From NCBI GenBank assembly GCA_965656375.1, contig CBFHKH010000001.1, positions 132,691 to 196,690 of the forward strand: a stretch of 64,000 nt of DNA, given 5' to 3'. The notes beneath the pieces were generated by a model. It did no database searches. It worked only from the letters and a program-made list of their open reading frames with translations, and was not told the DNA's origin. Numbering within the stretch: the first letter of the stretch is position 1; each line of letters opens with the position of its first letter. Position numbers and translations under genes: made by a program. This document shows, one piece after another, positions 9,199 through 32,579 of this stretch. This stretch comes from Minisyncoccia bacterium. GTDB taxonomy: Bacteria > Patescibacteriota > Minisyncoccia > Phycocordibacterales > UBA9973.

Positions 9199-9618
9199 AT
9201 GCTAAATGAGTTATTCGAATGGCTTTTTGGATCTGAGCCGAAAAAGAAAAGAAAAGTATTTATAAGTTTTGCAATTGAAGATAAAAAGTATAGAGACTTT
9301 TTAGTAAGCCAAGTCAAAAATGACAAAACTCCATTTGAATTTATTGATATGTCGGTAAAAAAGCCCTGGAGTGAGGAAGAGTGGAAAAAGCAATGCCGCA
9401 TCAAGATAAAGCAGTGTGACAGTATGATTGTACTGTTGAGCAAAAATACCTGGCACTCAAGTGGTTCAAGATGGGAAATAAAATGTGGTAGGAAAGAAAG
9501 ACTACGGATTATCGGGATGCATGTAAAAAAAGATGATAAGGGAGCTATACCACCTGAATTGCTTGGAAAAAGAGTCATTGAATGGTCATGGAAAAATCTT
9601 GAAAACTTTTTAAACTAA
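9199..9618 (+). CDS. TIR-like domain protein, DUF1863/MTH538 type (ThsB-like paralog)
   Basis: 139 aa. KVFISFAIEDKKYRDF...MIVLLSKNTWHSSGSRWEIKCG has the same architecture as the preceding ORF. It starts 19 nt after the previous stop. Confidence 0.55.
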   Translation: MLNELFEWLFGSEPKKKRKVFISFAIEDKKYRDFLVSQVKNDKTPFEFIDMSVKKPWSEEEWKKQCRIKIKQCDSMIVLLSKNTWHSSGSRWEIKCGRKERLRIIGMHVKKDDKGAIPPELLGKRVIEWSWKNLENFLN

Positions 9619-9623
9619 ATCTT

Positions 9624-10208: not shown

Positions 10209-11173
10209 GAAAAGCATTAGTTGTAGGAATAAATAATTATCCGAATGCATCGCTTGCTGGATGCATAAACGATGCTTCAGCATTTGGAGCAATTATGGGA
10301 ACACATGGAAACGGGGATCCGAACTTTGCAGTTCGCCTTTGTACCGATGTGCCGACAAAAGGAAAGCTTACCGAACTTCTACAGGAACTTTTTAAAGGAG
10401 ATAGTGAAGTTGCGCTCTTTTATTTTTCAGGCCATGGATTTGAAAATGATTTAGGAGCTTATCTCGTAACCCCGGATGCGGCAAAGTTAGATGTGGGGGT
10501 TTCAATGGCTGATTTATTAGTGATGGCAAATAATTCAAAAGCAACTAATAAGGTTATTATTTTGGATTGTTGTCATTCCGGTGCTGCAGGTACATCAATG
10601 ATAACGGGAGGTGTCACAACATCTATAAACAAAGGGGTAACTATATTAACTGCAAGCAAGTCCGATGAATTTGCAATGGAGGTAAACGGGCATGGCGTTT
10701 TTACAAATCTTCTTATAGATGCATTACAAGGCGGTGCTGCAGATATCAGGGGCGATATTACTCCCGGAAGCATCTATTCCTATATTGACCAGGCTTTAGG
10801 GCCCTGGGATCAGCGGCCAGTTTTCAAAACAAACATCACTGAATTTATTTCATTACGGGAAATTGCTCCAAAAGTTCCTAAAGAAACCCTAAGAAAAATT
10901 ATTCAATATTTTTCTGAACCTGAACAGGAATTTCCATTAGACCCTTCATTTGAATATACCAATTCAGAAGAAGTGAAACATACTGTTGTAGAACCATTTG
11001 CAAAAGCTGAAAATGTAGATGTGTTTAAGGATCTTCAAAAATTCCAAAGTGTTGGGTTGGTTGTACCTGTGGGAGCATCTTACATGTACTTTGCTGCAAT
11101 GGAATCACAATCGTGCAGGTTAACTGCGCTTGGGTATCATTATTGGAGATTAGTTAAGGATGGAAGAATTTAA
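10205..11173 (+). CDS. Caspase-like cysteine peptidase (Peptidase_C14 / metacaspase-like) with a C-terminal domain of about 100 aa of unknown function
   Basis: 322 aa. KALVVGINNYP...L.GCINDA, a catalytic His in FYFSGHG (His77) and a catalytic Cys in IILDCCHSG (Cys123). The ATGA start/stop overlap with the upstream TIR gene indicates translational coupling. Confidence 0.75.
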   Translation: MRKALVVGINNYPNASLAGCINDASAFGAIMGTHGNGDPNFAVRLCTDVPTKGKLTELLQELFKGDSEVALFYFSGHGFENDLGAYLVTPDAAKLDVGVSMADLLVMANNSKATNKVIILDCCHSGAAGTSMITGGVTTSINKGVTILTASKSDEFAMEVNGHGVFTNLLIDALQGGAADIRGDITPGSIYSYIDQALGPWDQRPVFKTNITEFISLREIAPKVPKETLRKIIQYFSEPEQEFPLDPSFEYTNSEEVKHTVVEPFAKAENVDVFKDLQKFQSVGLVVPVGASYMYFAAMESQSCRLTALGYHYWRLVKDGRI

Positions 11174-12562
11174 ATGCGGCTAAGCAAAATACAATGTAAA
11201 ATGATGACGAAAAAAGATTGGACAATTGAAATCGGAAGTGGGGTAATAGATTGTTGTAGTAATAGGGGTGGAGACGTTGTAATTGCTGGTGACATTACTG
11301 GAAAATTTATCCTTTGTAATTGTGATGGGAAAATTCTATTAGAAAATAAAGTTGAGTTACCAATTTGGGGCGTGGATTTTTCTACTCAATTGGATGTAGT
11401 TGCAATCGGAACAGCTTCTAAATCTCCTTTAAAAGGAGAGCTTATCGTTTTTAAACAAAATGAAATAATCTTCAAGCATTCCTTATCAAGCCCTGTATGG
11501 GATGTAAAAATTATCGAAAACCTTCAATTAGTAGTTGCATCGACTTGGAAAGATGGATTAATTATTTATAGCCTGCTTTCCCAAACGTTTACAAGCTATT
11601 CTTTTGAAGAATCACTTTTTGGCTTGGCATATGAAGGGTCAAATTTATATATCGTTGCCTCCGAAAAGGGGGTTTATAAATTTGACTTAGATAGCCAAGA
11701 GCCGCCAATATTAATTTATGATGAAAGAACATGTTGCTATAATATTTACCATAACGAAATTGAGAGAGTACTCTATGTTGGATCAAATTCTAACACATTG
11801 TCAAAAATTGATTTAGTAAATACAAAAAATAGCAAGACATATATAACCCTTTCAAGACAAATAAGTGCTATAAGCCACTTTGGAGAGAATATTATAACAG
11901 GAGACCTTTCAGGAAATCTTTATGTCAATAAAATTAATGATTTTTTAGCACCAATCTATTACCAAAAACTTGAAGATGCGATTTGGAACCTACAGTTTAT
12001 AAGCGATAGTAAAAAATTACTTATCGCCAACGGAAATGGTTTTTTAGAGTGTTATTCGCTAAGTGAATCAGAATACAGCTATTGGAATTTTGAAAGCTTG
12101 CCATTTGATGAAAAACATTTAAAGGGTATCAAAATCTTTATTAATTACGCAAAAGAGGACAAGGATTCTGTTCTCAAACTTTATACCGCACTTCACACAA
12201 TTGGATGTACCCCTTGGATGGATGAGTTTAATATTTTACCAGGACAAAATTGGAAATATGAAACAACAAAAGCTATTGAAGAAGCTGACTTTATTTTGAT
12301 TTGCCTATCATCTTTTTCTGTGGCTAAAAAGGGGTATGTTCAAAAAGAGATAAAAATTGCACTTGATATCATCGATTTGTTACCACAAAACAAAGTATTT
12401 ATAATACCAATCAAATTAGATGAATGTAATGTTCCCGACAATTTAAAGGATTGGCAAGCTGTAGACCTATTTGCACCAAACGGGTTTCAAAAATTTGTTT
12501 ACTCAATATTTATTGACAGGATAAAATATCAGAGTATACTTAATAAGAGATTACTAAACTAA
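11174..12562 (+). CDS. WD40/beta-propeller repeat protein with a C-terminal TIR domain
   Basis: 462 aa. N-terminal repeated beta-strand blocks typical of WD40 or beta-propeller folds. The C-terminal IKIFINYAKEDKDSVL...WMDEFNILPGQNW...ADFILICLSSFSVAKKGYVQKEIKIA is a TIR_2 pattern. It starts 1 nt after the caspase stop. Confidence 0.6.
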   Translation: MRLSKIQCKMMTKKDWTIEIGSGVIDCCSNRGGDVVIAGDITGKFILCNCDGKILLENKVELPIWGVDFSTQLDVVAIGTASKSPLKGELIVFKQNEIIFKHSLSSPVWDVKIIENLQLVVASTWKDGLIIYSLLSQTFTSYSFEESLFGLAYEGSNLYIVASEKGVYKFDLDSQEPPILIYDERTCCYNIYHNEIERVLYVGSNSNTLSKIDLVNTKNSKTYITLSRQISAISHFGENIITGDLSGNLYVNKINDFLAPIYYQKLEDAIWNLQFISDSKKLLIANGNGFLECYSLSESEYSYWNFESLPFDEKHLKGIKIFINYAKEDKDSVLKLYTALHTIGCTPWMDEFNILPGQNWKYETTKAIEEADFILICLSSFSVAKKGYVQKEIKIALDIIDLLPQNKVFIIPIKLDECNVPDNLKDWQAVDLFAPNGFQKFVYSIFIDRIKYQSILNKRLLN

Positions 12563-15008: not shown

Positions 15009-15097
15009 AAGCCTGCCAAATTTTGATCTGTACCCCAAAAAGTGGACACTTACGTGCCCACTTTTTTTCTGTTCAATTATTAGGTATAACAATAGAT

Positions 15098-15511
15098 ATG
15101 AAGCAACAAACATTCACAAAAGAGCAAATAGATGGATTGTTACGAAATGAAAATGTCTTGAAGTTTTGCGGGACGTATATCGCATATACGCCCGAATTTA
15201 AGATGAGAGCGGTCGATCAGTATCTTCATAAGGGAATGTCACCAAAGGAAATATTTAGGCAGGCGGGGTTTGATTTAACCCTCTTCAGTAAGCATAAGCC
15301 AAGCTATCTGATGTGTGACTGGCGCAAAATATTTAAGAAAAAAGGGATTGATGGATTTAGTACGGAAACGAGAGGTAAGGATGGAGGGAGGCCGAGAAGA
15401 TTTGAAACTTTGTCAGATATGGAGAAAATTAAGCGATTGGAATTAGAGGTGCGATACCTCAAAAAGGAGAATGATTTTTTAGTCAGACTCCGGGCCAGAA
15501 GAGCGGAGTAA
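15098..15511 (+). CDS. IS3-family transposase OrfA (HTH, leucine-zipper-like C-terminus)
   Basis: MKQQTFTKEQIDGLL...LELEVRYLKKENDFLVRLRARRAE is typical of IS3/IS150 OrfA. The upstream ATG at 15023 lies in the inverted repeat and flank and is rejected. Confidence 0.75.
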   Translation: MKQQTFTKEQIDGLLRNENVLKFCGTYIAYTPEFKMRAVDQYLHKGMSPKEIFRQAGFDLTLFSKHKPSYLMCDWRKIFKKKGIDGFSTETRGKDGGRPRRFETLSDMEKIKRLELEVRYLKKENDFLVRLRARRAE

Positions 15512-15525
15512 AACTCTGGCCAAAA

Positions 15526-16392
15526 ATGAAATATGGATTAATACGAGAGATGGGAGATAGTGTTGATGTTCTCTGCGTAATTGCAGGAGTATCGCGAAGC
15601 GGATACTACAAATGGCTGGGACATGCAGACAAGCCAGAGAAAGACTATTGGGATTACAAGCTCATTAAGGATGTGTTTGATGAAGGAAGGGCCAAATATG
15701 GCTGGAGAACCCTGCAAATGAAGCTTAAAGCTGATAAGAGTGTCGTAATGAATCATAAGAAGATCATGAGGATTAAGAATAAGTATCACCTGATAACCAA
15801 GATACGAAGGAAGAATCTATATAAAAATATCATGAAATGCACACCAGACCATAAGACATTCAGGAATATCTTAAATAGGAAGTTTCAACAAAAGAGTCCC
15901 TTTAGAACATTTTGTACGGATATTACCTACCTGCCATTTAATAGCAGTATGGTGTATCTGTCTGCGGTTAAAGATGTTGCGAGTCTGGAAATTGTTGCGT
16001 GGTACTTGTCCCCAAATCTCACACTGAATATTTCTTTAGGAACGATTGAGAATATGAAAAAGAATAAAACCATTCCCACATTGAAGAATGTGTTGATACA
16101 TTCGGATCAAGGATTTTACTACACCAATCCTGACTATGTATATAGGACAAAGGAACTCAAGATGGTGCAATCAATGTCAAGAAAAGGAAATGCCATTGAT
16201 AATGCGCCGATTGAATCTTTCTTCGGTCATTTCAAAGATGACATTGATTACAAAGACTGCAAGACATTTGAAGAAGTAAAAATAGCCACCGGAAAATATA
16301 TAGAGTATTATAACAACGAGAGGCAGCAATGGAATTTAAAAAAGATGACCCCTGTAGAATACAGAAATCATCTTTTGTTGGCCCGCCAGTAG
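15526..16392 (+). CDS. IS3-family transposase OrfB (rve DDE integrase core)
   Basis: 288 aa. HTH_21-like N-terminus and DDE residues in FCTDITYL..., IHSDQGFYYT and NAPIESFFGHFKDD. It is in the -1 frame relative to orfA. Confidence 0.8.
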   Translation: MKYGLIREMGDSVDVLCVIAGVSRSGYYKWLGHADKPEKDYWDYKLIKDVFDEGRAKYGWRTLQMKLKADKSVVMNHKKIMRIKNKYHLITKIRRKNLYKNIMKCTPDHKTFRNILNRKFQQKSPFRTFCTDITYLPFNSSMVYLSAVKDVASLEIVAWYLSPNLTLNISLGTIENMKKNKTIPTLKNVLIHSDQGFYYTNPDYVYRTKELKMVQSMSRKGNAIDNAPIESFFGHFKDDIDYKDCKTFEEVKIATGKYIEYYNNERQQWNLKKMTPVEYRNHLLLARQ

Positions 16393-16465
16393 GTTTAAGA
16401 GTGTCCACTCTAAAGGGTACACATCAATTTCTCCAAGCAGACTTTGTTGTACTAATAATCATAGG

Positions 16466-17383
16466 TTAATCTGATGATTCATTCGCATCTTCTTTTGGTT
16501 CACCTTCCATTCTACCTAGTATCCAATCCACCGCCTTTTGCGCCCCACCGGCAGCGGTAATAATGCACTTTTTGTCGTTTTTCAATACGTCAAGCCAGCC
16601 TTGTATATAGGCGGTATGATTGGCAATTTCAAACGGCAGTATGCTGGTAAACTGGCAAAGGAATGCTGCCCCCATTTCAGCAATTAACTCCTCCTGGGCA
16701 TAGCTTTCTGACCCAAACGAAGTCCGGTCAACAAGTGTTTTTCGGTCAAGCCGTTTAGCTGCACCGGTTGCATGCACCAACTCGTGCCACAAGGTTGCAT
16801 AGTAGCTGTGAGAGGTTTTAAAGTCCTTCATCTTGGGCATTGTGATTTCATCTGTTTCAACATTGTAGTATGCCGAAGCTTTGCCTTTAAATGAGATGAG
16901 TGGCATATCTGCAATATTGTGTAAGATACTCTCACATTCCATGATCGGATCAGGGCTTTTCCAGGCTTCCTGAACCGGGACAATGCTAACCGGAATGTCT
17001 TTACATTGCTCCAGGTTGAAGACTTTGTAATACCTGAGCATAGGAACAGTTGCAAAACTGCCATCGGCATTCTTTTCTTCTGGCTTTTTCTTAACATTCT
17101 TCCAGAATACAATAATGTGGCCCTTTTCGTCCTTAAGGACTGAGCCTTCCAAGGCCTTGATTTGATCCCAGGTTAAGAAGCAGTTACTTTCATACGGAAG
17201 GGCATTTAACAGCCAGAGATTGATACCACGATATGGCCGTTTACTCAGCATGTTGATGGGCATACCGGTTTCTTTCCAGGGTCGTTGCCAGGGCACCACG
17301 CCTTGTTGAAGCAACTCAATTACTTTGTCGGTAACAATTTGATACAAGTCCAAATCTTTGGACGTAGATGTTTGTGAATCCAT
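16466..17383 (-). CDS. ArdC-like antirestriction protein (N-terminal ssDNA-binding domain plus C-terminal zincin-like metalloprotease)
   Basis: LDLYQIVTDKVIELLQQGVVPWQRPW...RPYRGINLWLL is the ArdC-N pattern. HELVHATG is an HExxH motif. The start is taken at the internal Met (MDSQTS...). Confidence 0.7.
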   Translation of the reverse strand: MDSQTSTSKDLDLYQIVTDKVIELLQQGVVPWQRPWKETGMPINMLSKRPYRGINLWLLNALPYESNCFLTWDQIKALEGSVLKDEKGHIIVFWKNVKKKPEEKNADGSFATVPMLRYYKVFNLEQCKDIPVSIVPVQEAWKSPDPIMECESILHNIADMPLISFKGKASAYYNVETDEITMPKMKDFKTSHSYYATLWHELVHATGAAKRLDRKTLVDRTSFGSESYAQEELIAEMGAAFLCQFTSILPFEIANHTAYIQGWLDVLKNDKKCIITAAGGAQKAVDWILGRMEGEPKEDANESSD

Positions 17384-17502
17384 AATTCTAAGATTTAATT
17401 GTGAAAGAATAATTGTTTCTTTCAGCATAGCTGAATTCACATAGAAGCATAAGGGAGGGAAATTTGTCAGATAAGCAAGTGAGAGTGTAAGAAAAAAAGG
17501 AG

Positions 17503-17973
17503 TCATAAGACTCCTATACAATCTTCGAATGAAATAAATCCTTCAGGGCTAAGAACAAGATGATCCAGGACTTTAATATCAAGAAAGCGCCCGCCATTGA
17601 TTATCTTGTTTGTCAGGGTAATATCAGCGTTACTAAACGCGAGATTCCCAGAGGGGTGATTATGAGCAAGGATAATCTGGCAGGCATTTGTCTTTAGGGC
17701 AACTGAAAATACCTGTTTGGGATCCATGACAGTTCCGGTACATGAGCCTGAAGAAATATGATGGATTCCAAGTACCCGGTTAGACCTGTTAAGGAGCAAG
17801 AGTTTTGCCTGTTCAACCAGGTATATCTTGTCCATATCCCAGCACGTAAGGAAAATATTATACGCATCAACTGCGCCTCGAATAAGTGGCAGCTCCGAGG
17901 GCTTCAACCTTGGCCGGTAAATAACTTCAATTTCACAGGCGACAAGGGGTAATGGGTTTTCTGATTCTTTCAT
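17503..17973 (-). CDS. RadC-like JAB/MPN domain protein
   Basis: The JAMM motif AHNHPSGNLAFSNAD is present. The start is taken at the internal Met (MKESEN...). Confidence 0.7.
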   Translation of the reverse strand: MKESENPLPLVACEIEVIYRPRLKPSELPLIRGAVDAYNIFLTCWDMDKIYLVEQAKLLLLNRSNRVLGIHHISSGSCTGTVMDPKQVFSVALKTNACQIILAHNHPSGNLAFSNADITLTNKIINGGRFLDIKVLDHLVLSPEGFISFEDCIGVL

Positions 17974-18096
17974 ACTAATAAGTTTTAAATGAATGTATTT
18001 ATAACAAAGCATATAGGAAGGGAAGTGATGACATAAGGGCGGGTAATTTGCTGATGAGGCAAACAAAAAACAGGAGATATACTCCTGTTTTTTCAG

Positions 18097-18579
18097 TTAC
18101 TTTCCCTGAACAACTAAGGTAGCCACCGCCACTGCTTCAAAGAGCTTTACATAATAGCGTTTCTGGTTCTTCAGTTCCCGCCGGTAGCAGATCATAAGCT
18201 GGGGGAATTGAAGGGTAAGAGATTCCATGAGAACCTTTTTCAGCTTTTGTTTCCCTTCCGGTATTAAGAGATGAAACTCAGAGATTCTCTTTTCAAAAAC
18301 AGGAATGAGGTTGGCCTTAAAGTACTCTTTGAGCCTAAGCAAAAGGTATCTGAAACCCTTTGTCTGATGATGTGGTGGCGGTATTGACAAAATAACTCTT
18401 TTAATACAGTATTGGCGCACACACGGCTCCAGACTGGAGATTATCATATCCGCTTTCCCAGGCGACCAGGACGCTTTATGTAGATGAATTTTGTAGTCTA
18501 CAAGAGCATTCCCCGAGTTGATAATTGCCAGCCCAAGGAGCCGTGTGTTTGTACTAATGCCGAGTGTCATGTTTGGCAT
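18097..18579 (-). CDS. Hypothetical protein, possibly YqgF/RuvX-like RNase H-fold nuclease
   Basis: 160 aa. MTLGISTNTRLLGLAII...ADMIISSLEPCVRQYCIKRVILSIP loosely follows the RuvX pattern (LGIDxG...GVAV...VVGLP). The similarity is weak. Confidence 0.3.
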   Translation of the reverse strand: MPNMTLGISTNTRLLGLAIINSGNALVDYKIHLHKASWSPGKADMIISSLEPCVRQYCIKRVILSIPPPHHQTKGFRYLLLRLKEYFKANLIPVFEKRISEFHLLIPEGKQKLKKVLMESLTLQFPQLMICYRRELKNQKRYYVKLFEAVAVATLVVQGK

Positions 18580-18793
18580 TGCCTTGGTTGATAAGGAAGG
18601 TGTAGAGGGCTGCCCGGCTTTTCCTGATCTTCTCCGGAGGAAGCGTCATCACCTTATTGAGTACCTTTCGTAAGTATTCCTCTTTATACTTCCTGACATA
18701 CTGCAGGTGCATAACCAGGGAATCTCTGTCCTCCAGGGTTTCGGCTATTTCATTGGCAAGCCTTCGTTCATGGGGTTCATAATCATGATTCAT
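18554..18793 (-). CDS. Small hypothetical protein
   Basis: 79 aa ORF in an operon-like run with RadC and ArdC. Confidence 0.3.
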   Translation of the reverse strand: MNHDYEPHERRLANEIAETLEDRDSLVMHLQYVRKYKEEYLRKVLNKVMTLPPEKIRKSRAALYTFLINQGNAKHDTRH

Positions 18794-19008
18794 AGCAATA
18801 GATAGTTACTAATAAACCCCTCCCAATGGACTTATCCACACACGATACGTTCTTTTATCCTTTCGTTATCGTTAATCGTTCGTTTTTATACTATTGAATT
18901 TTCAAACAACAGAATTTCACCCATGAGAGGGAAAATGAAAAGGACAGCAAGTGTCCTTTTCACGTTGTTGCATTGCAACAACCACTGATTCTATGTTTTC
19001 ATATCGGC

Positions 19009-19284
19009 TTAGAGATTAGAAATAATGGACTCAGTTTCCTGAGTAAACAAGGGAACCGAGGCGGTAATATCACGCCACAGTTCCGGAAAAAGTTCATGCG
19101 GCCAAGTTCTGTATATCTGGGCAAGACGGAAGACCTGCACAATGCCAGGAAGCTTACTACCATGCTCCCATCGTGAGAGGGTGCTGGTATCAGCAAGCCC
19201 AAGCATACGTGCCACTTTCTTTTGAGAATACCCGGCTGTGCGCCTGAACATTTTTAACTTGTTTGGAACCCGACTAATTTCCAT
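19009..19284 (-). CDS. XRE-family helix-turn-helix transcriptional regulator
   Basis: TAGYSQKKVARMLGLADTSTLSRWEHGSKLP is a canonical HTH_XRE. Confidence 0.7.
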   Translation of the reverse strand: MEISRVPNKLKMFRRTAGYSQKKVARMLGLADTSTLSRWEHGSKLPGIVQVFRLAQIYRTWPHELFPELWRDITASVPLFTQETESIISNL

Positions 19285-19434
19285 AAATCTGATTGTATGA
19301 AAATATGAGAAGGGATATAAGGGAGGGCTATTTGAGTTTTAGGCAAAAACTGGGGATAACTCAAAAATTGGCTTTTGGAGTGCTATCTTGATTACTTATC
19401 CTTTAGATACTTTAACAAGCTAAAATTATTACTT

Positions 19435-20388
19435 ATGACACTTAAAATCGCAATTACTGAATTTCTCATCCATTGCCGGTTTGAAAAGAATTTGAGCGCT
19501 AAAACACTCAAAGCCTATGAAATAGACTTGAATCAGTTAAATACATTTTTGGTTACTAAAGACCGAATTGTTGATATTTCAAAAGACGATTTAAGGAACT
19601 ACCTAGTGTTACTCTCCTCCTTAAAACCAAAATCAATAAAAAGGAAAGTAGCTACGATGAAAGCGCTATTCAATTACCTGGAATTTGACGATAAAATAAT
19701 GATAAACCCCTTTCGAAAAATGCGAATAAAAATTAAAGAGCCACAGACATTGAGGCCCGTTATGGATGTTCGTGAAGTGATAAAGATTTTAAAAGCAAGT
19801 TATCAAAAGAAGAATTTGGTAAAGGATAGATGTAGTTACTCATACTTTGAATCACTTCGCAATATTGTAGTGCTTGAATTACTTTTTAGTACCGGTGCCA
19901 GAGTTTCAGAAATTGCAAATATTAAATCAGAATGTATCAATTTTCGTACCGGTTCAATTCTTATTAAAGGCAAGGGGAATAAGGAACGGAATATTCAGAT
20001 ATGTAACAAGGAAACATTAACCCTTTTACAAGAGTATTCTCAATTATTAAAAAGTAACAAGTCTCAGCAAGAAGGGTGGTTTCTTATCAATAGGTTTAAT
20101 AAAAAAATTTCTGACCAGTCTATTCGGAACATTGTAAGTAAAATATCAAGAAAGGCAGGTTTATCAAGACATATTACGCCCCATGTCTTTAGGCATACTT
20201 TTGCCACCTTGCTTCTTGAGAAAGATGTGGATATCAAATATATACAATCATTGCTGGGTCATAGTTCAATTACAACAACTCAAATCTATACTCATGTTAA
20301 TCAAAAGCGCCAACGTCAAATTTTAAGAACTAAACACCCTCGAAAAGACTTTACAATGGATATTTTAAGTTTCACCAACAGTGGATAA
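19435..20388 (+). CDS. Tyrosine recombinase/integrase (XerC/D-like phage integrase family)
   Basis: An N-terminal SAM-like core-binding domain. C-terminal HVFRHTFATLLLEKDVDIKYIQSLLGHSSITTTQIYTHV contains the R..H..R..Y catalytic residues. The start is taken at the internal Met (MTLKIAITEF). Confidence 0.85.
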   Translation: MTLKIAITEFLIHCRFEKNLSAKTLKAYEIDLNQLNTFLVTKDRIVDISKDDLRNYLVLLSSLKPKSIKRKVATMKALFNYLEFDDKIMINPFRKMRIKIKEPQTLRPVMDVREVIKILKASYQKKNLVKDRCSYSYFESLRNIVVLELLFSTGARVSEIANIKSECINFRTGSILIKGKGNKERNIQICNKETLTLLQEYSQLLKSNKSQQEGWFLINRFNKKISDQSIRNIVSKISRKAGLSRHITPHVFRHTFATLLLEKDVDIKYIQSLLGHSSITTTQIYTHVNQKRQRQILRTKHPRKDFTMDILSFTNSG

Positions 20389-20410
20389 CTAATTATTATC
20401 AGCTAACACC

Positions 20411-20971
20411 TTGCTAAAGGAAAAGAGAGATATTATCATCGTCCAACTTATTACATTAAGTAGGGCCATAGCGGCTTTAGTGTTTATTACAATTGCTCTT
20501 ACACCCAAATTTGTCTTCGCAGCTACTGTCTTATTTATCTATGCTTGTGTAACTGATGTAGTTGATGGATTTCTCGCGAGGAAATTTTCCTGCACTACAA
20601 ATACTGGAAAAATTTTAGATCTGTTTGGTGACAAGTATCTTACTGTGATTTCATTAACTTATGCAATCGCAAGAGGGATGCCAGCCTTGCCCTGTGCAAT
20701 TGCAATTTTAAGGGAAATATTATTACTATCTATGCGGTCTATATATATGGAGGGAGAACCTTTATTTCCTCCACAAAGATTATTAGGAACTTTAATGGTA
20801 ATTCCAATATGGTCTGGAACTGTCTTATTACTTTTATCACAAGATATTTTACCTGCATCAACAACTTTTTTCGCATTCTATTTTTGGATATTAGGTGGCT
20901 TAGCAAGCATAAACCTGACATACAAAATACTAGTAAACTGGAAAAAAATATTGCAATCTTTTAACTCTTAG
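20411..20971 (+). CDS. CDP-alcohol phosphatidyltransferase family membrane protein
   Basis: DVVDGFLARKFSCTTNTGKILDLFGDK matches the D-G-x2-A-R-x8-G-x3-D-x3-D signature. Multiple TM segments. Confidence 0.6.
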   Translation: MLKEKRDIIIVQLITLSRAIAALVFITIALTPKFVFAATVLFIYACVTDVVDGFLARKFSCTTNTGKILDLFGDKYLTVISLTYAIARGMPALPCAIAILREILLLSMRSIYMEGEPLFPPQRLLGTLMVIPIWSGTVLLLLSQDILPASTTFFAFYFWILGGLASINLTYKILVNWKKILQSFNS

Positions 20972-20977
20972 TTAAGA

Positions 20978-22126
20978 TCAGAATACTGTTTTTAGGGCGG
21001 GCCAAACATTTTTAAGTAGTGATATGATTAATGGAATATTTATTATTCCAACTACTTTTAATATTGATTTCCAATAAGGCCAAACTGAGATTAATTTTAC
21101 TTGATTAAAAACTGAACTTAGGGTGTTGAGTGTTTCCAAATCATCCGGCTTGAGTATTGATTTTTCATATTTTACAAGTTCAAAATAAAGAGCATTCTGT
21201 TTTCGTGCTATATCATCTAGTTGATTCTTTTTCTCAGACTTAATGATATTTCTAAGTTGAATCGCGGGAATTAGGTATATTATAATAAGTAAAAGACTCA
21301 TTAAACTCAAGCCAATAATAGGGGTAATACTAATATGGCCATGAATAAAAAAAGCGCTTACTACCGACGCGAACCCAACTAGCATTATTGGAATAGGTGG
21401 ATTAATTGCTATTTTAATGATTTCTCCTGCCCCAGCGTGCTCATCTTGGCTATAAGGCATTAGTTTAAAGAATTTTTCTCGTCTTGCTTCATGCAGTAAC
21501 TTATATAAAACAAATAAGCTGCTTAGATGTATATGAATAATGGCAGGTAGAAAAAACACCCACATATAGAGTTTATATACCCTAGTTAACCAATATCCAA
21601 AAAAGTGATTACTTGAATCCCAAAAATCAAAGCCTAAAAATCTAAGCGGCTCTTGATTTTGAAATGAATTCCAGGCAAAGCAAGCTAACCCAATTAAGGA
21701 AATTATTGCAAATGAAAGCCTACTTATGTTTGTTTGCTTTAACGTATGTTTATTGAGTAATGAGATATAAGTTGTTAAATCTTTACTTGCATCAATGACA
21801 TCATTTCCTTTCAAAAAGCCAAGCAACTTATTAATTGATTTTTGAAGAAACCAAGGAGCAATAATTTGCATTACTATAAATCCCCAAAAAGTTGAATGTT
21901 CAAGTAAACCTACATTTATTCCCTCCATTAGTAATGTGTGATCTAAGAGAGAACCAATTACTAATAGTAATATAAAGAGGGATGCTATAAAACAAGATTG
22001 ACCAAATACAGACTTCTTAAACAGAAATGACACCTTTTTACCAAATTGAAAGATGGAGTAATTATAAAAGAAGTCTGTATTTTCTAAAATCTTCATCTTA
22101 ATTAGCTGATAATAATTAGTTATCAA
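20978..22126 (-). CDS. Polytopic membrane protein of unknown function
   Basis: 382 aa and highly hydrophobic with many TM segments. No known motif. Confidence 0.4.
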   Translation of the reverse strand: MITNYYQLIKMKILENTDFFYNYSIFQFGKKVSFLFKKSVFGQSCFIASLFILLLVIGSLLDHTLLMEGINVGLLEHSTFWGFIVMQIIAPWFLQKSINKLLGFLKGNDVIDASKDLTTYISLLNKHTLKQTNISRLSFAIISLIGLACFAWNSFQNQEPLRFLGFDFWDSSNHFFGYWLTRVYKLYMWVFFLPAIIHIHLSSLFVLYKLLHEARREKFFKLMPYSQDEHAGAGEIIKIAINPPIPIMLVGFASVVSAFFIHGHISITPIIGLSLMSLLLIIIYLIPAIQLRNIIKSEKKNQLDDIARKQNALYFELVKYEKSILKPDDLETLNTLSSVFNQVKLISVWPYWKSILKVVGIINIPLIISLLKNVWPALKTVF

Positions 22127-22242
22127 TTGTTGGAGTAAGAAAGATAATGAAAATATATAAATTATTCATAGCTTATTTTAACAGACACTAGATATTCCCA
22201 ATTATTTAAGTAAATAGTATTGTATAAAAACTAACAATAATT

Positions 22243-22623: not shown

Positions 22624-23105
22624 AAATTAGAATATCATTGCTACAGAAGTCTATATATTAATAGCAGTAGAGATGAATAAAAATGGAGAAGCTATGAGCA
22701 ATGGAAAGGATTGTTTGTTTGCCATAATGCATTTTAAATGCATTGTAACATTTGAATTCTAAGAGATAAGTGCGGGAAAGATGCTGAAAATGCAAATTAT
22801 CCTCCCTTACCCTACATCTTCTTAAATGTAACACTGAAAGGGTTAATAAATATTGCCTATTGGTACAAAATGAGTCAAACGATAAACAACAAGGTTACGT
22901 CGCGTGCGGATTGCAAACAATCTTTTTCAATGCAAGCGCAGACTCCAAGTAAAAAGAGGCTTCAACAATTCCATCTTGAATATAAATTTATAGATCCTTC
23001 GGATAACAGTTTGGATAAGGCATTCGAAATACTTTTTGATGAGACTTTGAAAATTACTACCAATAATAGTTGACAGTTTGGAACAACTAGGAGTATTATT
23101 CAACA

Positions 23106-23273
23106 ATGGAATACTACACAAAAAATGAGGTAGCAAAACATTTCAGAGTTCACCCCAGGACAGTCGAAAGATGGCTTAAAGGAGGTGTTTTAAAAGGCCA
23201 CAAACTTGGAAACGGGAAAACCTCTTTGTGGCGTATTAAGAAAAATGAGGTTAAGAAATTTTTAGGAAAATAG
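23106..23273 (+). CDS. Excisionase/AlpA-like helix-turn-helix DNA-binding protein
   Basis: This 56-aa ORF is too short for the ORF track. Its product MEYYTKNEVAKHFRVHPRTVERWLKGGVLKGHKLGNGKTSLWRIKKNEV is the Xis/AlpA HTH_17 pattern. It ends 12 nt before the recombinase start. Confidence 0.55.
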   Translation: MEYYTKNEVAKHFRVHPRTVERWLKGGVLKGHKLGNGKTSLWRIKKNEVKKFLGK

Positions 23274-23285
23274 ATAAGAGCAAAA

Positions 23286-24980
23286 ATGTCAGATGACTTT
23301 GTACAAATAAATAAACAGATAGCTGTTTACGCCAGAGTGTCTTCATCAAATCAGGAAAATGAAGGAACCATTGAAACCCAGCTATCAGCCATATATGAAT
23401 ATGCCAAAAGGGAAAAATATTTAATTGTTGAACAATACCTTGATAATGGCTGGAGTGGAGACAGCATAATACGGCCGGAACTTGACAGGCTCCGGGTAGA
23501 TGCCAAAAAGAAAATCTGGAATACAGTTTTAATGTATGACCCTGACAGGTTAGCAAGAAGATATTCTTACCAGGAATTGGTAATGGATGAACTAAGGGAA
23601 GCTGGTATAGAGGTTCTTTTTGTAACAACCCCTGCTCCGGCAAATGGGATTGAAAAGATATTATATGGAGTACAGGGATTATTTGCTGAATATGAAAGGG
23701 CAAAGATTACAGAGCGATTCCGCCTGGGTAAAGTACGGAAGGCAAATGAAGGACATATCATCGTAAGCGAAGCCCCCTATGGATATACGTTTATTCCTAA
23801 GCATGGCAAAAGAGGTGATGCTGATTTTAGACAAGGGTATTACCAAATCAATGAGCACGAGGCTGAAATAGTAAAGAAACTGTTTTACTGGGTAGCAAAT
23901 GATGGTTTAACAATAAGGGGGATAATCAGAAAACTTCAAAATTTAGGTATAACGCCAAGGAAAAGTAAAAGAGAGGTCTGGAGTACAAGTACACTAAGCA
24001 CGCTTTTGAGAAATAAGACATACATTGGAGAAGGGCATTATGGCGCTTCCTATGCAGTGGTGCCATTAAATCCAATTAAAAAAGACGGCTACCGGAAAAT
24101 AAAGAAAACCAGTAGACGAGGTAAACCAGAAGCTGAGTGGATAAAAATTCCGACTCCTAAAATTATAGACGAAGCCCTGTTTACCAGAGTGCAACAGAAA
24201 TTAAAAACAAACTTTGAAGCTGCTTCCAGAAATACGAAAAATGAATACCTGCTTTCTGCAAAAATTTGGTGTTCATGCGGTAGCAGGCTCACAGGGGAAG
24301 GTGTAAAGAACGGGAGAAATCTCTATTATCGTTGCACAAACAGGGTGCGTAATTTCCCTTTACTCCCAACCTGCACAAGAAAAGGGATTAATGCAAAAGT
24401 TATTGATGAATCTGTGTGGCAGCAGATCAAACACTTAATGAGTTCTCCGGAATTGCTGGAAGTGCAGGCAAAGCGCTGGTTCAATGAGCGGCAAAACAAA
24501 AAATTTCATTCTTCTATTGATAAAGGAACTATCCAAAAAGAGATTGATAAACTGAAAGAGCATGAACATCGTTATACCAAGGCTTATGGAGCAGGTCTGA
24601 TCTCGATTGAACAATTGAAAGAATACATACAGCCGGTGAGAGATAAAACCAAATCATTAATAGAACAGTTGGAAAAGAATCGGGTGGAAAGTGAACAAAA
24701 TGGAAAAACAATATTACCAGCAAGTGATCAGATTGAATTGTTTGTGCAAAAAGCTGCTAAGACTCTGCAAAACTTGAACTTCGGAGCAAAAAAGGCAATA
24801 ATTAAAAATGTAATCGAAAAGATTATTGCAACACCACAGGAATTATTAGTTTATGGATATATACCAATTAACAAATTAGAAGATGTCCCATTATGTTCTG
24901 TCCATTGGAATCGTAGGTCTGCCGAACGTCGGAAAGTCGACGCTTTTCAATGCGCTCACAAAGAAAGGCGTACCAGCTGA
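23286..24980 (+). CDS. Large serine recombinase (integrase); 3' end reads through into the ychF coding region
   Basis: 564 aa. IAVYARVSSSNQ with the catalytic Ser. Recombinase domain, Cys-rich zinc ribbon (CSCGSRL...CTNRVRNFPLLPTC) and coiled coil. The last roughly 33 codons overlap the ychF start in another frame. Confidence 0.85.
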   Translation: MSDDFVQINKQIAVYARVSSSNQENEGTIETQLSAIYEYAKREKYLIVEQYLDNGWSGDSIIRPELDRLRVDAKKKIWNTVLMYDPDRLARRYSYQELVMDELREAGIEVLFVTTPAPANGIEKILYGVQGLFAEYERAKITERFRLGKVRKANEGHIIVSEAPYGYTFIPKHGKRGDADFRQGYYQINEHEAEIVKKLFYWVANDGLTIRGIIRKLQNLGITPRKSKREVWSTSTLSTLLRNKTYIGEGHYGASYAVVPLNPIKKDGYRKIKKTSRRGKPEAEWIKIPTPKIIDEALFTRVQQKLKTNFEAASRNTKNEYLLSAKIWCSCGSRLTGEGVKNGRNLYYRCTNRVRNFPLLPTCTRKGINAKVIDESVWQQIKHLMSSPELLEVQAKRWFNERQNKKFHSSIDKGTIQKEIDKLKEHEHRYTKAYGAGLISIEQLKEYIQPVRDKTKSLIEQLEKNRVESEQNGKTILPASDQIELFVQKAAKTLQNLNFGAKKAIIKNVIEKIIATPQELLVYGYIPINKLEDVPLCSVHWNRRSAERRKVDAFQCAHKERRTS

Positions 24981-26004
24981 GAACTACCCATTTTGTACTA
25001 TTGATCCATCAGTGGGAATCGTACCGGTGCCTGATGCACGACTCTCTAAACTTTCTGAATTCTCGAAATCTGCAAAAACAATTCCTGCTGTTATAGAATT
25101 CGTTGATATTGCAGGATTGGTAAAAGGTGCTTCTGCTGGTGAAGGTCTTGGTAATAAATTTCTTTCAAATATCCGTGAAGTTGATGCCATATTTGAAATG
25201 GTCCGCATTTTCCCGCTTAAAAATGAAGGAGGGAACGAAGTCATCCATGTATATGGTGATATTGACCCACTGCGTGATATCGAAGTTATCAATCTTGAAC
25301 TCATACTTGCTGATCTTGAAACCGTTACAAAGCGTAGAAATAATTTAGGAAAAGATTTGAAGAAAGGCGACAAAGAGGCACTCATTGAAGATGCTGCACT
25401 TGCGAAACTAATTACTACGCTTGAAACTGGAAAGCTTGCAAATTCATGTGAGTTCGATGAGAAAGAAATAGAAAAAGTGAAGATGCTCAATCTCCTCACT
25501 TTGAAACCTTTTATCTATGGGCTTAACAAACGCGGTGGTGCAAAGAACTTGGACGAAACGAATCCAGAGATATTCAAGGAACTGACCGACTATATTATGA
25601 ATATGGGCTCACGGTATGTTGTTCTTGATGCCAAGATTGAAGAAGAACTAAAAGATTTCGAAGGTGAAGAAAAAGAAACATTCCGAAAGGAATTAGGCGG
25701 AAACGATGATGGGATCAATAACCTCATAAGCGAAGGGTACAAGCTCCTTGGGCTCGATACATACTTTACGACAGGAGAAGATGAAACTCGTGCATGGACG
25801 ATCAAACACGGCTCAACAGCACCAATTGCAGGTACTGCGATACACACGGATTTCAAAGATAAATTCATCAGGGCAGAAGTGGTATTTTGGCAAGATCTAC
25901 TCGATGCAGGATCATACGGCGAGGCTCGATCAAAAGGTAAAGTTCGTACAGAAGGGAAGGAATACATCGTCAAAGATGGTGATGTAGTGGAATTCAAAAT
26001 ATAG
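24883..26004 (+). CDS. ychF: Ribosome-binding ATPase YchF (Obg-family GTPase)
   Basis: GIVGLPNVGKSTLFNALT P-loop. A C-terminal TGS domain. Full length at 373 aa. Confidence 0.9.
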   Translation: MSHYVLSIGIVGLPNVGKSTLFNALTKKGVPAENYPFCTIDPSVGIVPVPDARLSKLSEFSKSAKTIPAVIEFVDIAGLVKGASAGEGLGNKFLSNIREVDAIFEMVRIFPLKNEGGNEVIHVYGDIDPLRDIEVINLELILADLETVTKRRNNLGKDLKKGDKEALIEDAALAKLITTLETGKLANSCEFDEKEIEKVKMLNLLTLKPFIYGLNKRGGAKNLDETNPEIFKELTDYIMNMGSRYVVLDAKIEEELKDFEGEEKETFRKELGGNDDGINNLISEGYKLLGLDTYFTTGEDETRAWTIKHGSTAPIAGTAIHTDFKDKFIRAEVVFWQDLLDAGSYGEARSKGKVRTEGKEYIVKDGDVVEFKI

Positions 26005-29570: not shown

Positions 29571-32500
29571 ATGAAAAATTACGATCATAGTAAAATTGAA
29601 AAAAAATGGCAGAAAGAGTGGGATAAGAAAAAGATCTATAAGACAGAATCTCCAAGTAAAAAAAAGAAATTCTACGTACTCGATATGTTTCCGTATCCGT
29701 CTGGTGCTGGACTCCATGTAGGTCATCCACGTGGGTATATTGGCTCTGATGTATACGCTCGTATGAAACGCATGCAAGGGTTCAATGTTCTTCATCCGAT
29801 GGGATATGACGCATTCGGTTTGCCTGCAGAGCAGTATGCAATTGAACACAAAATTCACCCTAAAAAGGCAGTCGACATAAATGTAGCCACATTCGAACGT
29901 CAGCTCTCTGTGATCGGCCTTTCGTATGATTGGTCTCGCAAAGTAAATACGACTGATCCCACGTACTACAAATGGACGCAGTGGATTTTTATCGAAATAT
30001 ATAATTCTTGGTATGACAATACAAAGAACAAAGCTCGACCGATCGGAGAGCTCGTAAAATTGTTTGAGCGTGATGGAAACAAAAAAATAGATGCGGTATG
30101 TGATGCGGCGTACTCAGATATATTCTCCGCGAATGAATGGAAAGGGTATAGTGATGTAGAGAAGCAAGACATACTCATGAAATATAGACTCGCATACGAA
30201 GGATATGCGCTTGTAAACTGGTGCCCAAAACTCGGCACTGTTCTTGCAAATGATGAAATCGTAGAAGACAAAGATGGCAACCAGGTCTCAGAACGTGGTG
30301 GATACCCGGTAGAGAAGCTTTCTATGCGTCAATGGTTTATGCGTATCACCGCATATGCTGATCGCTTGCTTACTGATCTCGAAGGGTTGAATTGGTCATC
30401 ACATATCAAAGAGATACAGAAAAATTGGATTGGAAAGAGCGAGGGAAGTGAGATCGAATTTAAAACCACTATCAATAGAACTGTGAAAATCTTTACCACA
30501 CGTGCGGATACACTTTTTGGTGTTACCTATGTAGTACTTTCACCAGAACATGCCAATATCGGAGAATTTATCGTGCAGTCACAAAACATGGCTGAAGCAT
30601 CAGCATATATCCGCGAAGCAAAAGAGCGAATGAAGAAAGAAGACATGCCTGCGCATGCAGGAAAGACTGGCATAGAACTCAAGGGTATCAAAGCTATCAA
30701 TCCAGCAAATGGGGAGGAAGTTCCTGTATGGATCGGGGACTATGTCCTTGCGAACTACGGTACTGGAGCTGTGATGGCTGTACCTGCACACGATGAGCGA
30801 GATTTTGAATTTGCGAAGAAATATAACTTGCCAATGAAGAGGGTGGTAGAACCAAAATTTGTATATTCGGAAGGTGAAGCTGCATATAGAGAAAAAGAAC
30901 CATATGTATACAGAGAGTGTATTTGTGCAATTGTGAGAAATCCAAAAGATGATACATATCTTTGTGTAAGCTGGAAAAAATTCAAGATGCATGGTCTAGT
31001 TACGGGAGGTATTGAAATTGGTGAGGATCCAATCGAAACTGCTAAGAGAGAGATCTATGAAGAAACAGGATATAAGAATGTAATTCTGACAAAAGATCCG
31101 AAATTTGGTCTTCAGACTTTTTTCTATCATCGTGTTAAAGAGATCAATAGACGGGCTCGATTTCAGTATCTTTTCTTTGATCTAGTTAATGAAGAACAAG
31201 ATCCATTAGCAAAGGAAGAATTTGATCTTCATGATGTTGTTTGGATTCCCAAAAATGAAATAAAAACTTTCTTTACTGTAGCCGAAGGCGAGTTTACATA
31301 CAATCTTATTGAGAATCCTGATTACATACACAAAGAAGATGGTATTTTATATTATTCTGGAAAATTTGATGGGATGGATTCTGATGAAGCCCGAAAGAAA
31401 ATCACGGAGGAGGTTGGCGGAAAAATAGTAACAAAATACAAAATGCGTGATGCGATATTTGCGCGCCAGCGATACTGGGGTGAGCCGATACCACTTAAGC
31501 ATGATAAGAAGACAGGCCTCACTTCTCCACTCAAGACAAAAGAATTACCACTCAAACTACCAAATGTAACCTCATACGAACCGACAGGTACCGGAGAGTC
31601 GCCACTTGCATCTGTGAATGCATGGGTAAAAAGTGGTTATGAGACTAATACAATGCCCGGCTGGGCAGGATCTTCATGGTACTTCCTGCGATATATGGAT
31701 CCAAAAAATTCTAAAGAATTCGCAAGCAAGAAATCGCTTGCGTACTGGAAAGATGTCGACATGTATATTGGTGGTCAGGAACATGCGACCGGGCATTTGC
31801 TCTACTCCCGCTTCTGGCACAAATTCCTCTATGATATGGGCTATGTTCCTACCAAGGAACCATTCAAGACGCTCAAGAACCAAGGTCTCATCATAGCTTC
31901 TGATGGACGCAAGATGAGTAAGCGATGGGGAAATGTGATCAACCCTGATGAAATAGTAAAAACATATGGAGCCGATACTCTCCGTGTATATGAAATGTTC
32001 ATAGGGCCATTTGATCAAACTGCACTTTGGAGCACTGAAAGTATAATTGGATCTCGGAGATTCATCGAGCGCGTCTATAGATTGCAAGAAAAGATAGTCA
32101 AGAAATATTCACATCCTTCGACTCTCGAGAAAGCACTTCACAAGACAATTAAAAAGGTCACAGAAGATATAGAAGGGATGAATTTTAATACAGCGATTTC
32201 TTCTATGATGGTATGCATCAATGAAGCAGACAAGGCAACAGAAATATCTCTTGATGACTTTAAAAAATTTTTACAAATCCTCGCACCATTTGCACCGCAT
32301 ATTGCAGAGGAGCTTTGGAATTCTTCAGGCGAGAAAAAATCTATACATACATCCGTATGGCCGAAGTGGGATAAGAAAAAAATCGTAGACGATACAGTGA
32401 CTATCGCTATTCAAGTCAACGGCAAATTGAGAGCAGAGCTCGTTATCCCTCTTGATATGGCAGAAGAAGATGTTCGAACTCTGGCACTTGGGGACAAGGC

Positions 32501-32579
32501 TATCGGAGGCTGGATAGAAGGCAAAGAAGTACGACGTGTGATTTATGTGAAAAATAGACTTATGAACATTGTTGTCTAG
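29571..32579 (+). CDS. leuS: Leucyl-tRNA synthetase with an inserted NUDIX hydrolase domain
   Basis: HIGH-type motif HVGH, CP1 editing motif TTRADTLFGV and KMSKRWGN. Between AHDERDFEFAKKYNLP and ARQRYWGEPIP sits an insert of about 170 aa with the Nudix box GGIEIGEDPIETAKREIYEETGY. Total length 1002 aa. Confidence 0.9.
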   Translation: MKNYDHSKIEKKWQKEWDKKKIYKTESPSKKKKFYVLDMFPYPSGAGLHVGHPRGYIGSDVYARMKRMQGFNVLHPMGYDAFGLPAEQYAIEHKIHPKKAVDINVATFERQLSVIGLSYDWSRKVNTTDPTYYKWTQWIFIEIYNSWYDNTKNKARPIGELVKLFERDGNKKIDAVCDAAYSDIFSANEWKGYSDVEKQDILMKYRLAYEGYALVNWCPKLGTVLANDEIVEDKDGNQVSERGGYPVEKLSMRQWFMRITAYADRLLTDLEGLNWSSHIKEIQKNWIGKSEGSEIEFKTTINRTVKIFTTRADTLFGVTYVVLSPEHANIGEFIVQSQNMAEASAYIREAKERMKKEDMPAHAGKTGIELKGIKAINPANGEEVPVWIGDYVLANYGTGAVMAVPAHDERDFEFAKKYNLPMKRVVEPKFVYSEGEAAYREKEPYVYRECICAIVRNPKDDTYLCVSWKKFKMHGLVTGGIEIGEDPIETAKREIYEETGYKNVILTKDPKFGLQTFFYHRVKEINRRARFQYLFFDLVNEEQDPLAKEEFDLHDVVWIPKNEIKTFFTVAEGEFTYNLIENPDYIHKEDGILYYSGKFDGMDSDEARKKITEEVGGKIVTKYKMRDAIFARQRYWGEPIPLKHDKKTGLTSPLKTKELPLKLPNVTSYEPTGTGESPLASVNAWVKSGYETNTMPGWAGSSWYFLRYMDPKNSKEFASKKSLAYWKDVDMYIGGQEHATGHLLYSRFWHKFLYDMGYVPTKEPFKTLKNQGLIIASDGRKMSKRWGNVINPDEIVKTYGADTLRVYEMFIGPFDQTALWSTESIIGSRRFIERVYRLQEKIVKKYSHPSTLEKALHKTIKKVTEDIEGMNFNTAISSMMVCINEADKATEISLDDFKKFLQILAPFAPHIAEELWNSSGEKKSIHTSVWPKWDKKKIVDDTVTIAIQVNGKLRAELVIPLDMAEEDVRTLALGDKAIGGWIEGKEVRRVIYVKNRLMNIVV

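Follow-up and report, generated by a model that had tools for sequence, protein, structure and literature searches.

The window analysed here (64,000 nucleotides of contig CBFHKH010000001.1 from the Minisyncoccia bacterium assembly GCA_965656375.1) holds two overlapping open reading frames (ORFs) on the forward strand, one encoding a large serine recombinase (LSR), named LSR#1, and the other the P-loop protein YchF. The 98 nt shared by both frames (24883–24980) are very probably the right hybrid attachment site (attR) of an island of at least 33 kb that resembles an integrative and conjugative element (ICE) and that LSR#1 inserted into a chromosome of Patescibacteria type, at the first codons of ychF. 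The initial annotation had noticed that the recombinase frame runs 98 nt into ychF and had considered either a precise integration, with the 3′ end of the recombinase swapped at attR, or a chimeric join in the assembly. The comparison of three attachment sites described below speaks for the precise integration, and the recombinase tail after residue 541–542 is out-of-frame ychF. The reads of the sample are those of ERR15116721, and the NCBI contig spans 840 kb. The junction is composed of the following parts:

23286–24980, plus strand: LSR#1 in its integrated (tail-swapped) form, 564 aa; residues 1–541/542 are native and residues 543–564 (RRSAERRKVDAFQCAHKERRTS) are out-of-frame ychF
24883–26004, plus strand: chimeric ychF, 373 aa; codons 1–8 derive from the element, the remainder from the host
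24883–24906, plus strand: left arm (P) derived from the attachment site of the element (attP), ATGTCCCATTATGTTCTGTCCATT, the same as the left arm of the intact attP of locus L179
24907–24911: core GGAAT, common to attP, the chromosomal attachment site (attB) and attR in the three-site alignment
24909–24932, plus strand: right arm (B′) derived from attB, the ychF P-loop codons (I)GIVGLPNVGK; it fits the empty sites of the nearest ychF relatives with mostly wobble differences

For the three-site comparison the attR of the window was aligned with the intact attP of L179, which originates from another sample, and with the empty attB of locus L099:

attP (L179): left arm ..GATGTCCCATTATGTTCTGTCCATT, centre GG, right arm AATGGAGTGAACACAATTCC..
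attR (window): left arm as the attP left arm, centre GG, right arm AATCGTAGGTCTGCCGAACGTCGG..
attB (L099): left arm ..GGACTGTATGTTAAGTATC, centre GG, right arm AATCGTAGGTTTACCAAACGTCGG..

At the join attP and attB have only the five nucleotides GGAAT in common, and the alignment of the sequences places the crossover within 24907–24911, 27 bp from position 24880, within a few tens of bp of which the att site had been expected. Serine recombinases act by a 2-bp staggered cut, and the GG at 24907–24908 is likely the central crossover dinucleotide. It is located on the symmetry axis of attP (TCCATT-GG-AATGGA in L179; position 25|26 of the 50-bp site in L034), the 24-nt arms of which mirror each other at 16 of 24 positions on either side of the GG. 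The P′ arm reads GGAATGGAGTGAACACAATTCC (GGAATGGAGTGAACACAATTCCGAAT in the copy of the sister element described below), the empty attB would be the native ychF start joined to GGAATCGTAGGTCTGCC, and the circle junction would be TGTCCATTGGAATGGAGTG. Read in the frame of ychF, the P arm is ATG TCC CAT TAT GTT CTG TCC ATT and encodes MSHYVLSI, the new start codon belonging to ATGTC, the outer motif of the left arm. The resulting protein matches TIGR00092 over residues 6–372 (413.8 bits against a cutoff of 279.2), and its P-loop, GLPNVGKS, is as intact as had been stated.

The two sides of the junction differ in composition. The GC content of positions 1–24906 is indeed lower than that of the remainder (36.1% vs. 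39.8%), a real but modest step, and the tetranucleotide usage switches sharply at about 24 kb: 4-kb segments on the left correlate with the left mean at r 0.69–0.83 and with the right mean at r 0.20–0.39, and segments on the right correlate with the right mean at r 0.65–0.84 and with the left mean at r 0.16–0.54. Positions 1–24908 of the window constitute the right-hand 24.9 kb of the integrated island, which runs at least 10 kb past the left edge of the window; the island sequence examined comprises these positions and the 10 kb further left (L094). The tetranucleotide signature is uniform over 1–24000 and these 10 kb, unlike the right side and foreign to the host. Downstream, ychF is followed by genes for pterin-4a, Sua5, DUF1003, a 185-aa protein and LeuRS. 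This order is common to the empty-site relatives, to unlabelled metagenome contigs and to occupied genomes labelled Nomurabacteria, Paceibacterota or Saccharibacteria, so that the description of the right side as a core resembling the candidate phyla radiation (CPR) holds for ychF and its downstream neighbours. The ‘short ValRS’ named in that description (29571–32579) is LeuRS (TIGR00396, 912 bits), the catalytic core of which is split into segments by an inserted NUDIX domain.

Furthermore, the uninterrupted site anticipated upstream of ychF in related genomes was found. Among 78 ychF-anchored metagenome loci only one is occupied, and the five closest relatives (74–85% amino acid identity) are all empty. 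L099, the YchF of which is 85% identical, agrees with the window from the GG (24907) onward. In the empty-site relatives ychF retains a native start (M-S-L-S-I-G; ATG-TTA-AGT-ATC-GG or the like in the closest ones) and a −10 element of its own that resembles TGnTATAtT. Their upstream ychF neighbours are not conserved and therefore the left host flank is not predictable.

The same arrangement is found far beyond the window. One genome per species was scanned for LSR#1 relatives and the best 80 loci were taken, hosts being assigned from labels of metagenome-assembled genomes (MAGs), synteny and named homologs. The LSR/ychF overlap is present in 64 of these 80 loci, always with the identical frame offset. 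At occupied loci the LSR stop lies 20–167 nt beyond the conserved AT(A/C/T)-GG, and 60 of 65 occupied junctions have an in-frame ychF ATG upstream of the GG, at a distance of 24 nt (50 cases) or 18 nt (10 cases). The occupied genomes are mostly labelled as Patescibacteria lineages and include the complete Wolfebacteria chromosome CP011209. Other loci, labelled Bacteroidota, Verrucomicrobiota, Proteobacteria or Omnitrophota, lack ychF downstream. The start of Chitinophagaceae-type ychF is ATG AAA TGT GG.., without the left arm, and such a Bacteroidota-type (MKCG) start occurs at 0 of the 64 occupied junctions. In four loci the left hybrid site (attL) could be seen as well: the displaced native tail lies 4–8 kb upstream, straight after the original ychF start (MALSIG.., MLSIGIV.., MLKIG..), variable cargo of 4–8 kb is flanked by the displaced tails, and the GG is unchanged in all four attL/attR pairs. 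Ten ychF-free loci contain an intact attP within the LSR gene, an imperfect palindrome of some 50 bp with the form ATGTCn-N18-GG-N18-nGACAT and GG in its centre. Every intact attP copy read by eye (the ten loci and L179) has an open MSxxxL[STA][IV]G reading, which shows that the replacement N-terminus of YchF exists before integration. In a tree of LSR#1, integrated and intact forms are interleaved, and the window groups with L179, L095, L097 and a Ferruginibacter copy. The architecture with an intragenic attP and ychF as target is family-wide in Patescibacteria.

Two observations concern the annotation of these loci. Gene callers place the start of ychF downstream of the LSR stop, so that the annotated protein has only 330 of its 373 aa and lacks the P-loop (L001 11727–12719, corresponding to about 25012–26004 of the window), and the C-termini of many recombinases in databases (…NRNRRSAKRREIDAF) are out-of-frame ychF. 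Moreover, in several Patescibacteria-type loci (L129 2674–3948; L009, L014 and L016, 3–4 kb downstream) the chromosomal gene of a TrwB/TraG-like coupling ATPase is no more than a few kb away from ychF, placing the preferred landing site of the LSR family near a type IV secretion system (T4SS) neighbourhood of CPR genomes.

LSR#1 matches the Pfam families Resolvase (PF00239, E = 6e-28, residues 12–157), Recombinase (PF07508, E = 3e-20) and Zn_ribbon_recom (PF13408, E = 6e-12). Its nucleophile is S19, in a motif R17-V18-S19 that is invariant in 31 homologs and aligns with RVS of the TP901-1 integrase. More than 5000 homologs exist, and their C-termini fall into two classes. Members of the first have about 540–555 aa and end with ...NRNRRSAKRR(K/E)IDAF, i.e., out-of-frame YchF P-loop codons; members of the second have about 570–590 aa and a conserved tail ...RNG.NT....IPFEF.I.LPPP..G.DYGF. 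P0121 (587 aa), encoded by the DNA of L179, is a second protein in the same 90%-identity cluster as LSR#1. Over residues 1–542 the two are 95% identical, after which P0121 is unrelated and continues with the native tail GVNTIPNPEGDENKNAAVIPFEFAIRIPETG.., and the DNA of L179 is 92.7% identical to window 22708–24911, the match ending at 24911. A PDB sequence search with LSR#1 matched the catalytic domain alone and was uninformative on the tail. For the native-tail homolog P0002 an AlphaFold2 model predicts long helices (373–473) between zinc-ribbon strands, the last strand of the zinc-ribbon domain ending at about 530, a low-confidence linker (534–556) that holds the crossover, and a confident beta strand (559–567) that bears the IPFEF motif. 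This model indicates that residues 1–541/542, which LSR#1 retains, include every folded domain. Because the LSR#1 gene holds the attP of about 50 bp in its 3′ end, integration exchanges the tail of the LSR and the start of ychF reciprocally: LSR#1 loses its native tail of about 45 aa with the IPFEF-type strand and gains 22 basic residues of out-of-frame ychF. By analogy with other systems, the tail swap may modulate activity or directionality of the integrase. On viral contigs only recombinases of 26–28% identity were found, giving no evidence that the element is a phage.

Two further features are located directly upstream of LSR#1:

23070–23099, plus strand: promoter-like site TTGACA-18-TATTAT, matching 11 of 12 positions in a consensus scan and upstream of HTH_17-LSR#1(-ychF), a position suggesting a promoter function
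23106–23273, plus strand: HTH_17 (excisionase/MerR-type) gene, 55 aa, directly upstream of LSR#1 (PF12728, E = 1.9e-11)

About 40 related loci have kept the HTH_17 gene immediately before the LSR, with 40–81% identity (mostly above 60%) and in both integration states, and the HTH_17 protein is from its position a candidate directionality factor or regulator. No terminator is present between LSR#1 and ychF. A terminator-like hairpin at 24927–24942 is located within the P-loop codons and is regarded as fortuitous, the scan having yielded fewer such sites than expected by chance. Similarly, no internal ychF promoter is claimed for the 3′ end of LSR#1, where the best matches reach only 9 of 12 consensus positions and occur at background frequency.

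The island encodes a second recombinase of this kind, which has kept its own attP:

4199–5938, plus strand: LSR#2, 579 aa, attP-intact form; Pfam Resolvase, Recombinase and a C-terminal HTH_3
5660–5709: attP#2 inside LSR#2, with inverted outer motifs GCCGGGAAAGGGCA / TGCCTTTTTCCCGGGC and the core AT at 5683–5684

The palindrome of attP#2 alone is only modestly significant (12 of 24 ungapped matches). In the 90% cluster of LSR#2 five proteins of 495 aa stop exactly at the breakpoint (...GKGH(Q/H)FV*), and the C-terminus of another member, MBK8609369.1 from a Chitinophagaceae MAG (1.79-Mb contig), stops there too. A sister element was found in sample SRR29270585. Its contig_41277 has three blocks collinear with the window at 90–94% nucleotide identity (5683–11151, 16427–19365 and 22708–24911), the identity over the contigs of this sample being 90–95%. 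Toward the two sister junctions, the last homologous position of the window is 5684 for L183 and the first is 5683 for L181. A 495-aa protein 98% identical to LSR#2 is encoded on a second contig, so that both junctions of the sister element were recovered from one sample. On this second contig the body of LSR#2 adjoins host genes for a PDZ/aspartyl protease, M16 peptidases, holin_4_2, LemA and DUF2207, syntenic with the Chitinophagaceae MAG. The sites compare as follows:

attP#2 (window 5683–5684): ..CACTTGGT AT TTCCTGCATTGCC..
LSR#2 body / host: ..CACTTCGT AT AGGTTGTAAATTCG..
host / P′ of the LSR#2 site: ..ATACATCCA AT TTCCTGCATTGCC..

The attB#2 reconstructed from these, ..ACATCCA AT AGGTTGTAAATT.., is intergenic and about 40 nt upstream of mqnC (TIGR03699), and the sister element sits between mqnC and the protease gene of a Chitinophagaceae-like chromosome. 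Judged from these sequences, the sister element is integrated through LSR#2, which has lost its 84-aa helix-turn-helix (HTH) tail, with LSR#1 and its attP intact, and the window displays the reverse. The window and the sister element carry their genes in orders that are related by circular permutation of a single map. The sister element likely points to DNA traffic between Patescibacteria and Chitinophagaceae by means of a cross-phylum ICE-like element.

The remaining content of the island was surveyed by a Pfam scan of 29 of the ORFs of at least 55 aa upstream of the junction, and the following features were assigned:

146–2275, minus strand: GajA (964 bits, PADLOC) of a complete Gabija defence pair; GajB (738 bits, PADLOC) lies at L094 12136–13890, just past the left edge of the window
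8770–12562: three ThsB-like TIR proteins, a caspase-family protein (Peptidase_C14) and a WD40-TIR protein, about 90% identical in the sister element
15023–16427: IS3-family insertion sequence with two ORFs (HTH_Tnp_1, then rve) and 28-nt inverted repeats (82% complementary), not present in the sister element
19375–22138: region of a tyrosine recombinase (XerC/D-like), which adjoins 37-nt inverted repeats (20370–20406 / 22102–22138, 89% complementary)

ThsA was not seen at the TIR/caspase cluster, which may be an uncharacterised defence module. The 37-nt repeats enclose a CDP-alcohol phosphatidyltransferase gene and the gene of a 382-aa membrane protein, and the repeat-bounded unit, which the sister element lacks, may be an invertible or nested cassette. 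Further genes encode SSB, a NarL-type two-component pair, ArdC, RadC and an HTH_3 protein. In the intact-attP relatives L095, L097 and L179, LSR#1 is followed by genes for TrwB/TraG-like coupling ATPases, preceded except in L097 by an NYN gene, and a DUF87 protein is encoded downstream of LSR#1 in L095 and L179. On the chromosomal side of the window, an NYN-domain ORF (41498–41959) is 42% identical to the NYN gene after LSR#1 in L095 and L179. The named homologs of the response regulator of the cargo (61–65% identity) belong to Chitinophagaceae, Ferruginibacter, Chitinophaga, Lacibacter, Mucilaginibacter and Puia, those of the coupling proteins to Segetibacter, Hanamia and Bacteroidota. It is the backbone of the ICE-like element and its cargo that give the Bacteroidota-like signal. 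The traits of this phylum that had been ascribed to all of the DNA on the left stand for the cargo, which has its homologs in Chitinophagaceae and other Bacteroidota, and not for the recombinase, the family of which is mostly found in CPR genomes and targets ychF.

Several points weigh against the integration of an ICE-like island by LSR#1. Searches for the attL of the element, by tblastn with the native tails of long-form homologs and by a degenerate P′-arm pattern, yielded nothing above chance in the window or the adjoining 10 kb on its left, and the integration is documented from one end only. A 35-nt direct repeat (2071/24859, 71% identity) was considered as an att site, but it lies inside the GajA gene and was judged to be due to chance. 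Relaxase and mating-pore genes were not seen in the island parts examined, and the element is therefore termed only ‘ICE-like’. No close homolog of the TrwB-type coupling protein from the 840-kb contig is among the best 120 matches listed, so that this copy may deviate in its left part or lack it; a match of 94% to the coupling protein comes from an unrelated sample. The IS3 insertion and the additional recombinase genes show that the island is rearranged, and the core AT of attP#2 is palindromic, which is unusual for a directional LSR site. An estimate of about 45 kb for the island size was dropped, since the DUF6443 fragments of L097 and L094 do not overlap and tblastx between them was empty. 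An alternative would be an old insertion that is real but now immobile: a decaying remnant that lost attL, with a tail-swapped LSR#1 no longer active and the overlap left as a fossil scar. The lack of attL within 33 kb, the IS3 element together with mosaic cargo replacements relative to the sister element, and the lack of a close type IV coupling protein match among those 120 fit such a remnant. However, both LSR ORFs are intact with their catalytic motifs, the backbone is 90–95% identical to the copy in another phylum and its composition is not ameliorated toward the host, suggesting a recent arrival, and the circular map derived from the sister element puts attL beyond the examined sequence. 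We regard the remnant as unlikely.

The chimeric join, in which the contig of a Bacteroidota element would have been falsely attached to a CPR contig at the conserved P-loop sequence of ychF or close to it, would account for the sharp shift in composition and taxonomic signal at the junction, for the sister element in a Chitinophagaceae-like genome and for the attL missing from the window and the 10 kb to its left. Yet the join is exactly on the symmetry centre of attP, the overlap GGAAT is much shorter than the k-mer of any assembler, ychF and synteny of CPR type begin with the first base after the core, and no occupied junction has the Bacteroidota-type start. As attP and attB share only 5 nt, as the junction is present in two assemblies (the 840-kb NCBI contig and a 61.7-kb unitig-based Logan contig) and as 64 other genomes, including the complete Wolfebacteria chromosome, have the same architecture, chimerism is effectively excluded. 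Finally, the overlap is widespread in CPR genomes and always in the same frame, as would be the case for a vertically inherited pair of overlapping genes, e.g., a domesticated recombinase translationally coupled to ychF. Such a pair is already refuted by the empty sites and the attL/attR pairs: the recombinase is lacking at 77 of the 78 ychF loci, including the five closest relatives, where ychF has its native start and promoter, the displaced tails at attL flank variable cargo, intact-attP and integrated forms alternate in the LSR tree, and the three-site comparison displays the recombination directly. Site-specific integration by LSR#1 is the reading followed here.

Serine integrases are major tools of genome engineering, and their att sites are normally located outside the gene. 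LSR#1 resembles the serine integrases of phages and ICEs (phiC31, Bxb1, TP901-1, A118, SPbeta SprA; SCCmec Ccr) in its resolvase domain, recombinase domain and zinc ribbon with a predicted coiled-coil insert, in the attP of about 50 bp with imperfect inverted arms, in the hybrid sites (attR in the window, attL in four related loci) and in the small accessory gene adjoining the integrase. It differs in that attP lies inside its own coding sequence, so that integration rewrites the C-terminus of the integrase, and in that the target is formed by the first codons of a conserved protein gene, to which the element gives a new start. LSR#1 does not belong to the Ccr proteins, reaching 136–145 bits with the NCBIfam models CcrB/CcrC against a cutoff of 900. 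An attP within the integrase gene is described, with reference to earlier work (its refs 24, 25), for Mx8 IntP/IntX and for the fusellovirus SSV1 (PMC4383910). LSR#1 and LSR#2 share this location of attP within the integrase ORF, but the integrases of Mx8 and SSV1 are tyrosine recombinases targeting tRNA genes, whereas both LSRs of the island are serine recombinases; moreover, the island has two such integrases and the exchange by LSR#1 also restarts the target gene, so that the likeness is one of logic and not of membership. In the mycobacteriophages BPs and Brujita an attP in the repressor gene underlies integration-dependent immunity (PMC3694055). There too attP lies inside a gene of the element and the C-terminus of a protein differs between the viral and the integrated state. 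In those phages, however, the protein is a repressor from which a degradation tag is removed, and the integrase is a tyrosine recombinase, whereas here the integrase itself is altered and LSR#2 loses a whole HTH_3 domain.

The choice of ychF as target of LSRs is not new in itself, as pipolins with LSRs were reported to be integrated at ychF in Actinomycetota according to the portions consulted of PMC11551731. Apart from the host phylum, the island differs in that these portions give neither an att anatomy nor an attP inside the integrase gene, and piPolB (DNA polymerase B domain) is absent from the 29 Pfam-scanned window ORFs upstream of the junction and from the called genes of L094. A defective pneumococcal prophage likewise adjoins ychF (PMC8637289). 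Islands in tRNA or tmRNA genes regenerate the split target, and the displaced fragment marks their other end (Islander, PMC4383910). As in these islands, a copy of the displaced gene end on the element keeps the target functional; the differences are that the 5′ end of a protein gene is regenerated and encoded in the overlapping LSR#1 frame, that the host promoter is displaced and that the integrase is of the serine instead of the tyrosine type. For Patescibacteria, a survey of T4SS reported rare relaxases suggesting acquisition of mobile elements (PMC12102498). Our full-text literature searches returned no description of a serine integrase with an intragenic attP, of a Patescibacteria LSR family targeting ychF or of a dual-LSR element common to Bacteroidota and Patescibacteria.

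Taken together, the following course of events is proposed. The element would have arrived in the CPR cell by conjugation-like transfer. LSR#1 recombined attP with the attB in ychF, likely at the central GG; the native tail of LSR#1 should now lie at attL. By this exchange the promoter, start and first codons of the host ychF were swapped for the ATG and the codons MSHYVLSI that the element carries in an alternative frame of the LSR gene, the P-loop staying intact and the original promoter and start being displaced to attL. ychF would now be transcribed from element promoters, probably together with LSR#1. The loss of the tail or of the HTH domain might tune activity or directionality, as in the change from Mx8 IntP to IntX, and the HTH_17 protein might act as directionality factor. 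Which integrase is used presumably follows from the attB that the host offers, and the element would alternate between its two integration modules by host. A tentative extension, which we consider possible but less probable than not, is an ICE that shuttles between two hosts: it would integrate through LSR#2 at the site next to mqnC in Chitinophagaceae and through LSR#1 at ychF in Patescibacteria, conjugate between a Chitinophagaceae host and its Patescibacteria epibiont, and record its state and gate its excision by the alteration of the integrases.

As a summary, a family of thousands of recombinases carries attP inside the integrase ORF and has its attB in the P-loop of YchF/OLA1, among the most conserved coding sequences known. 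It offers a natural system for how C-terminal extensions control integrases and for how an element enters a conserved gene without killing it. For annotators, it means that ychF is truncated at these junctions and that the C-termini of the recombinases are misread. Patescibacteria are mostly uncultured epibionts, the hosts of which are largely unknown. An element that is 90–95% identical in both phyla and is integrated by two integrases is direct sequence evidence of recent exchange and yields a testable host prediction; if the shuttle were true, the ICE would identify the physical host of an uncultured CPR lineage.

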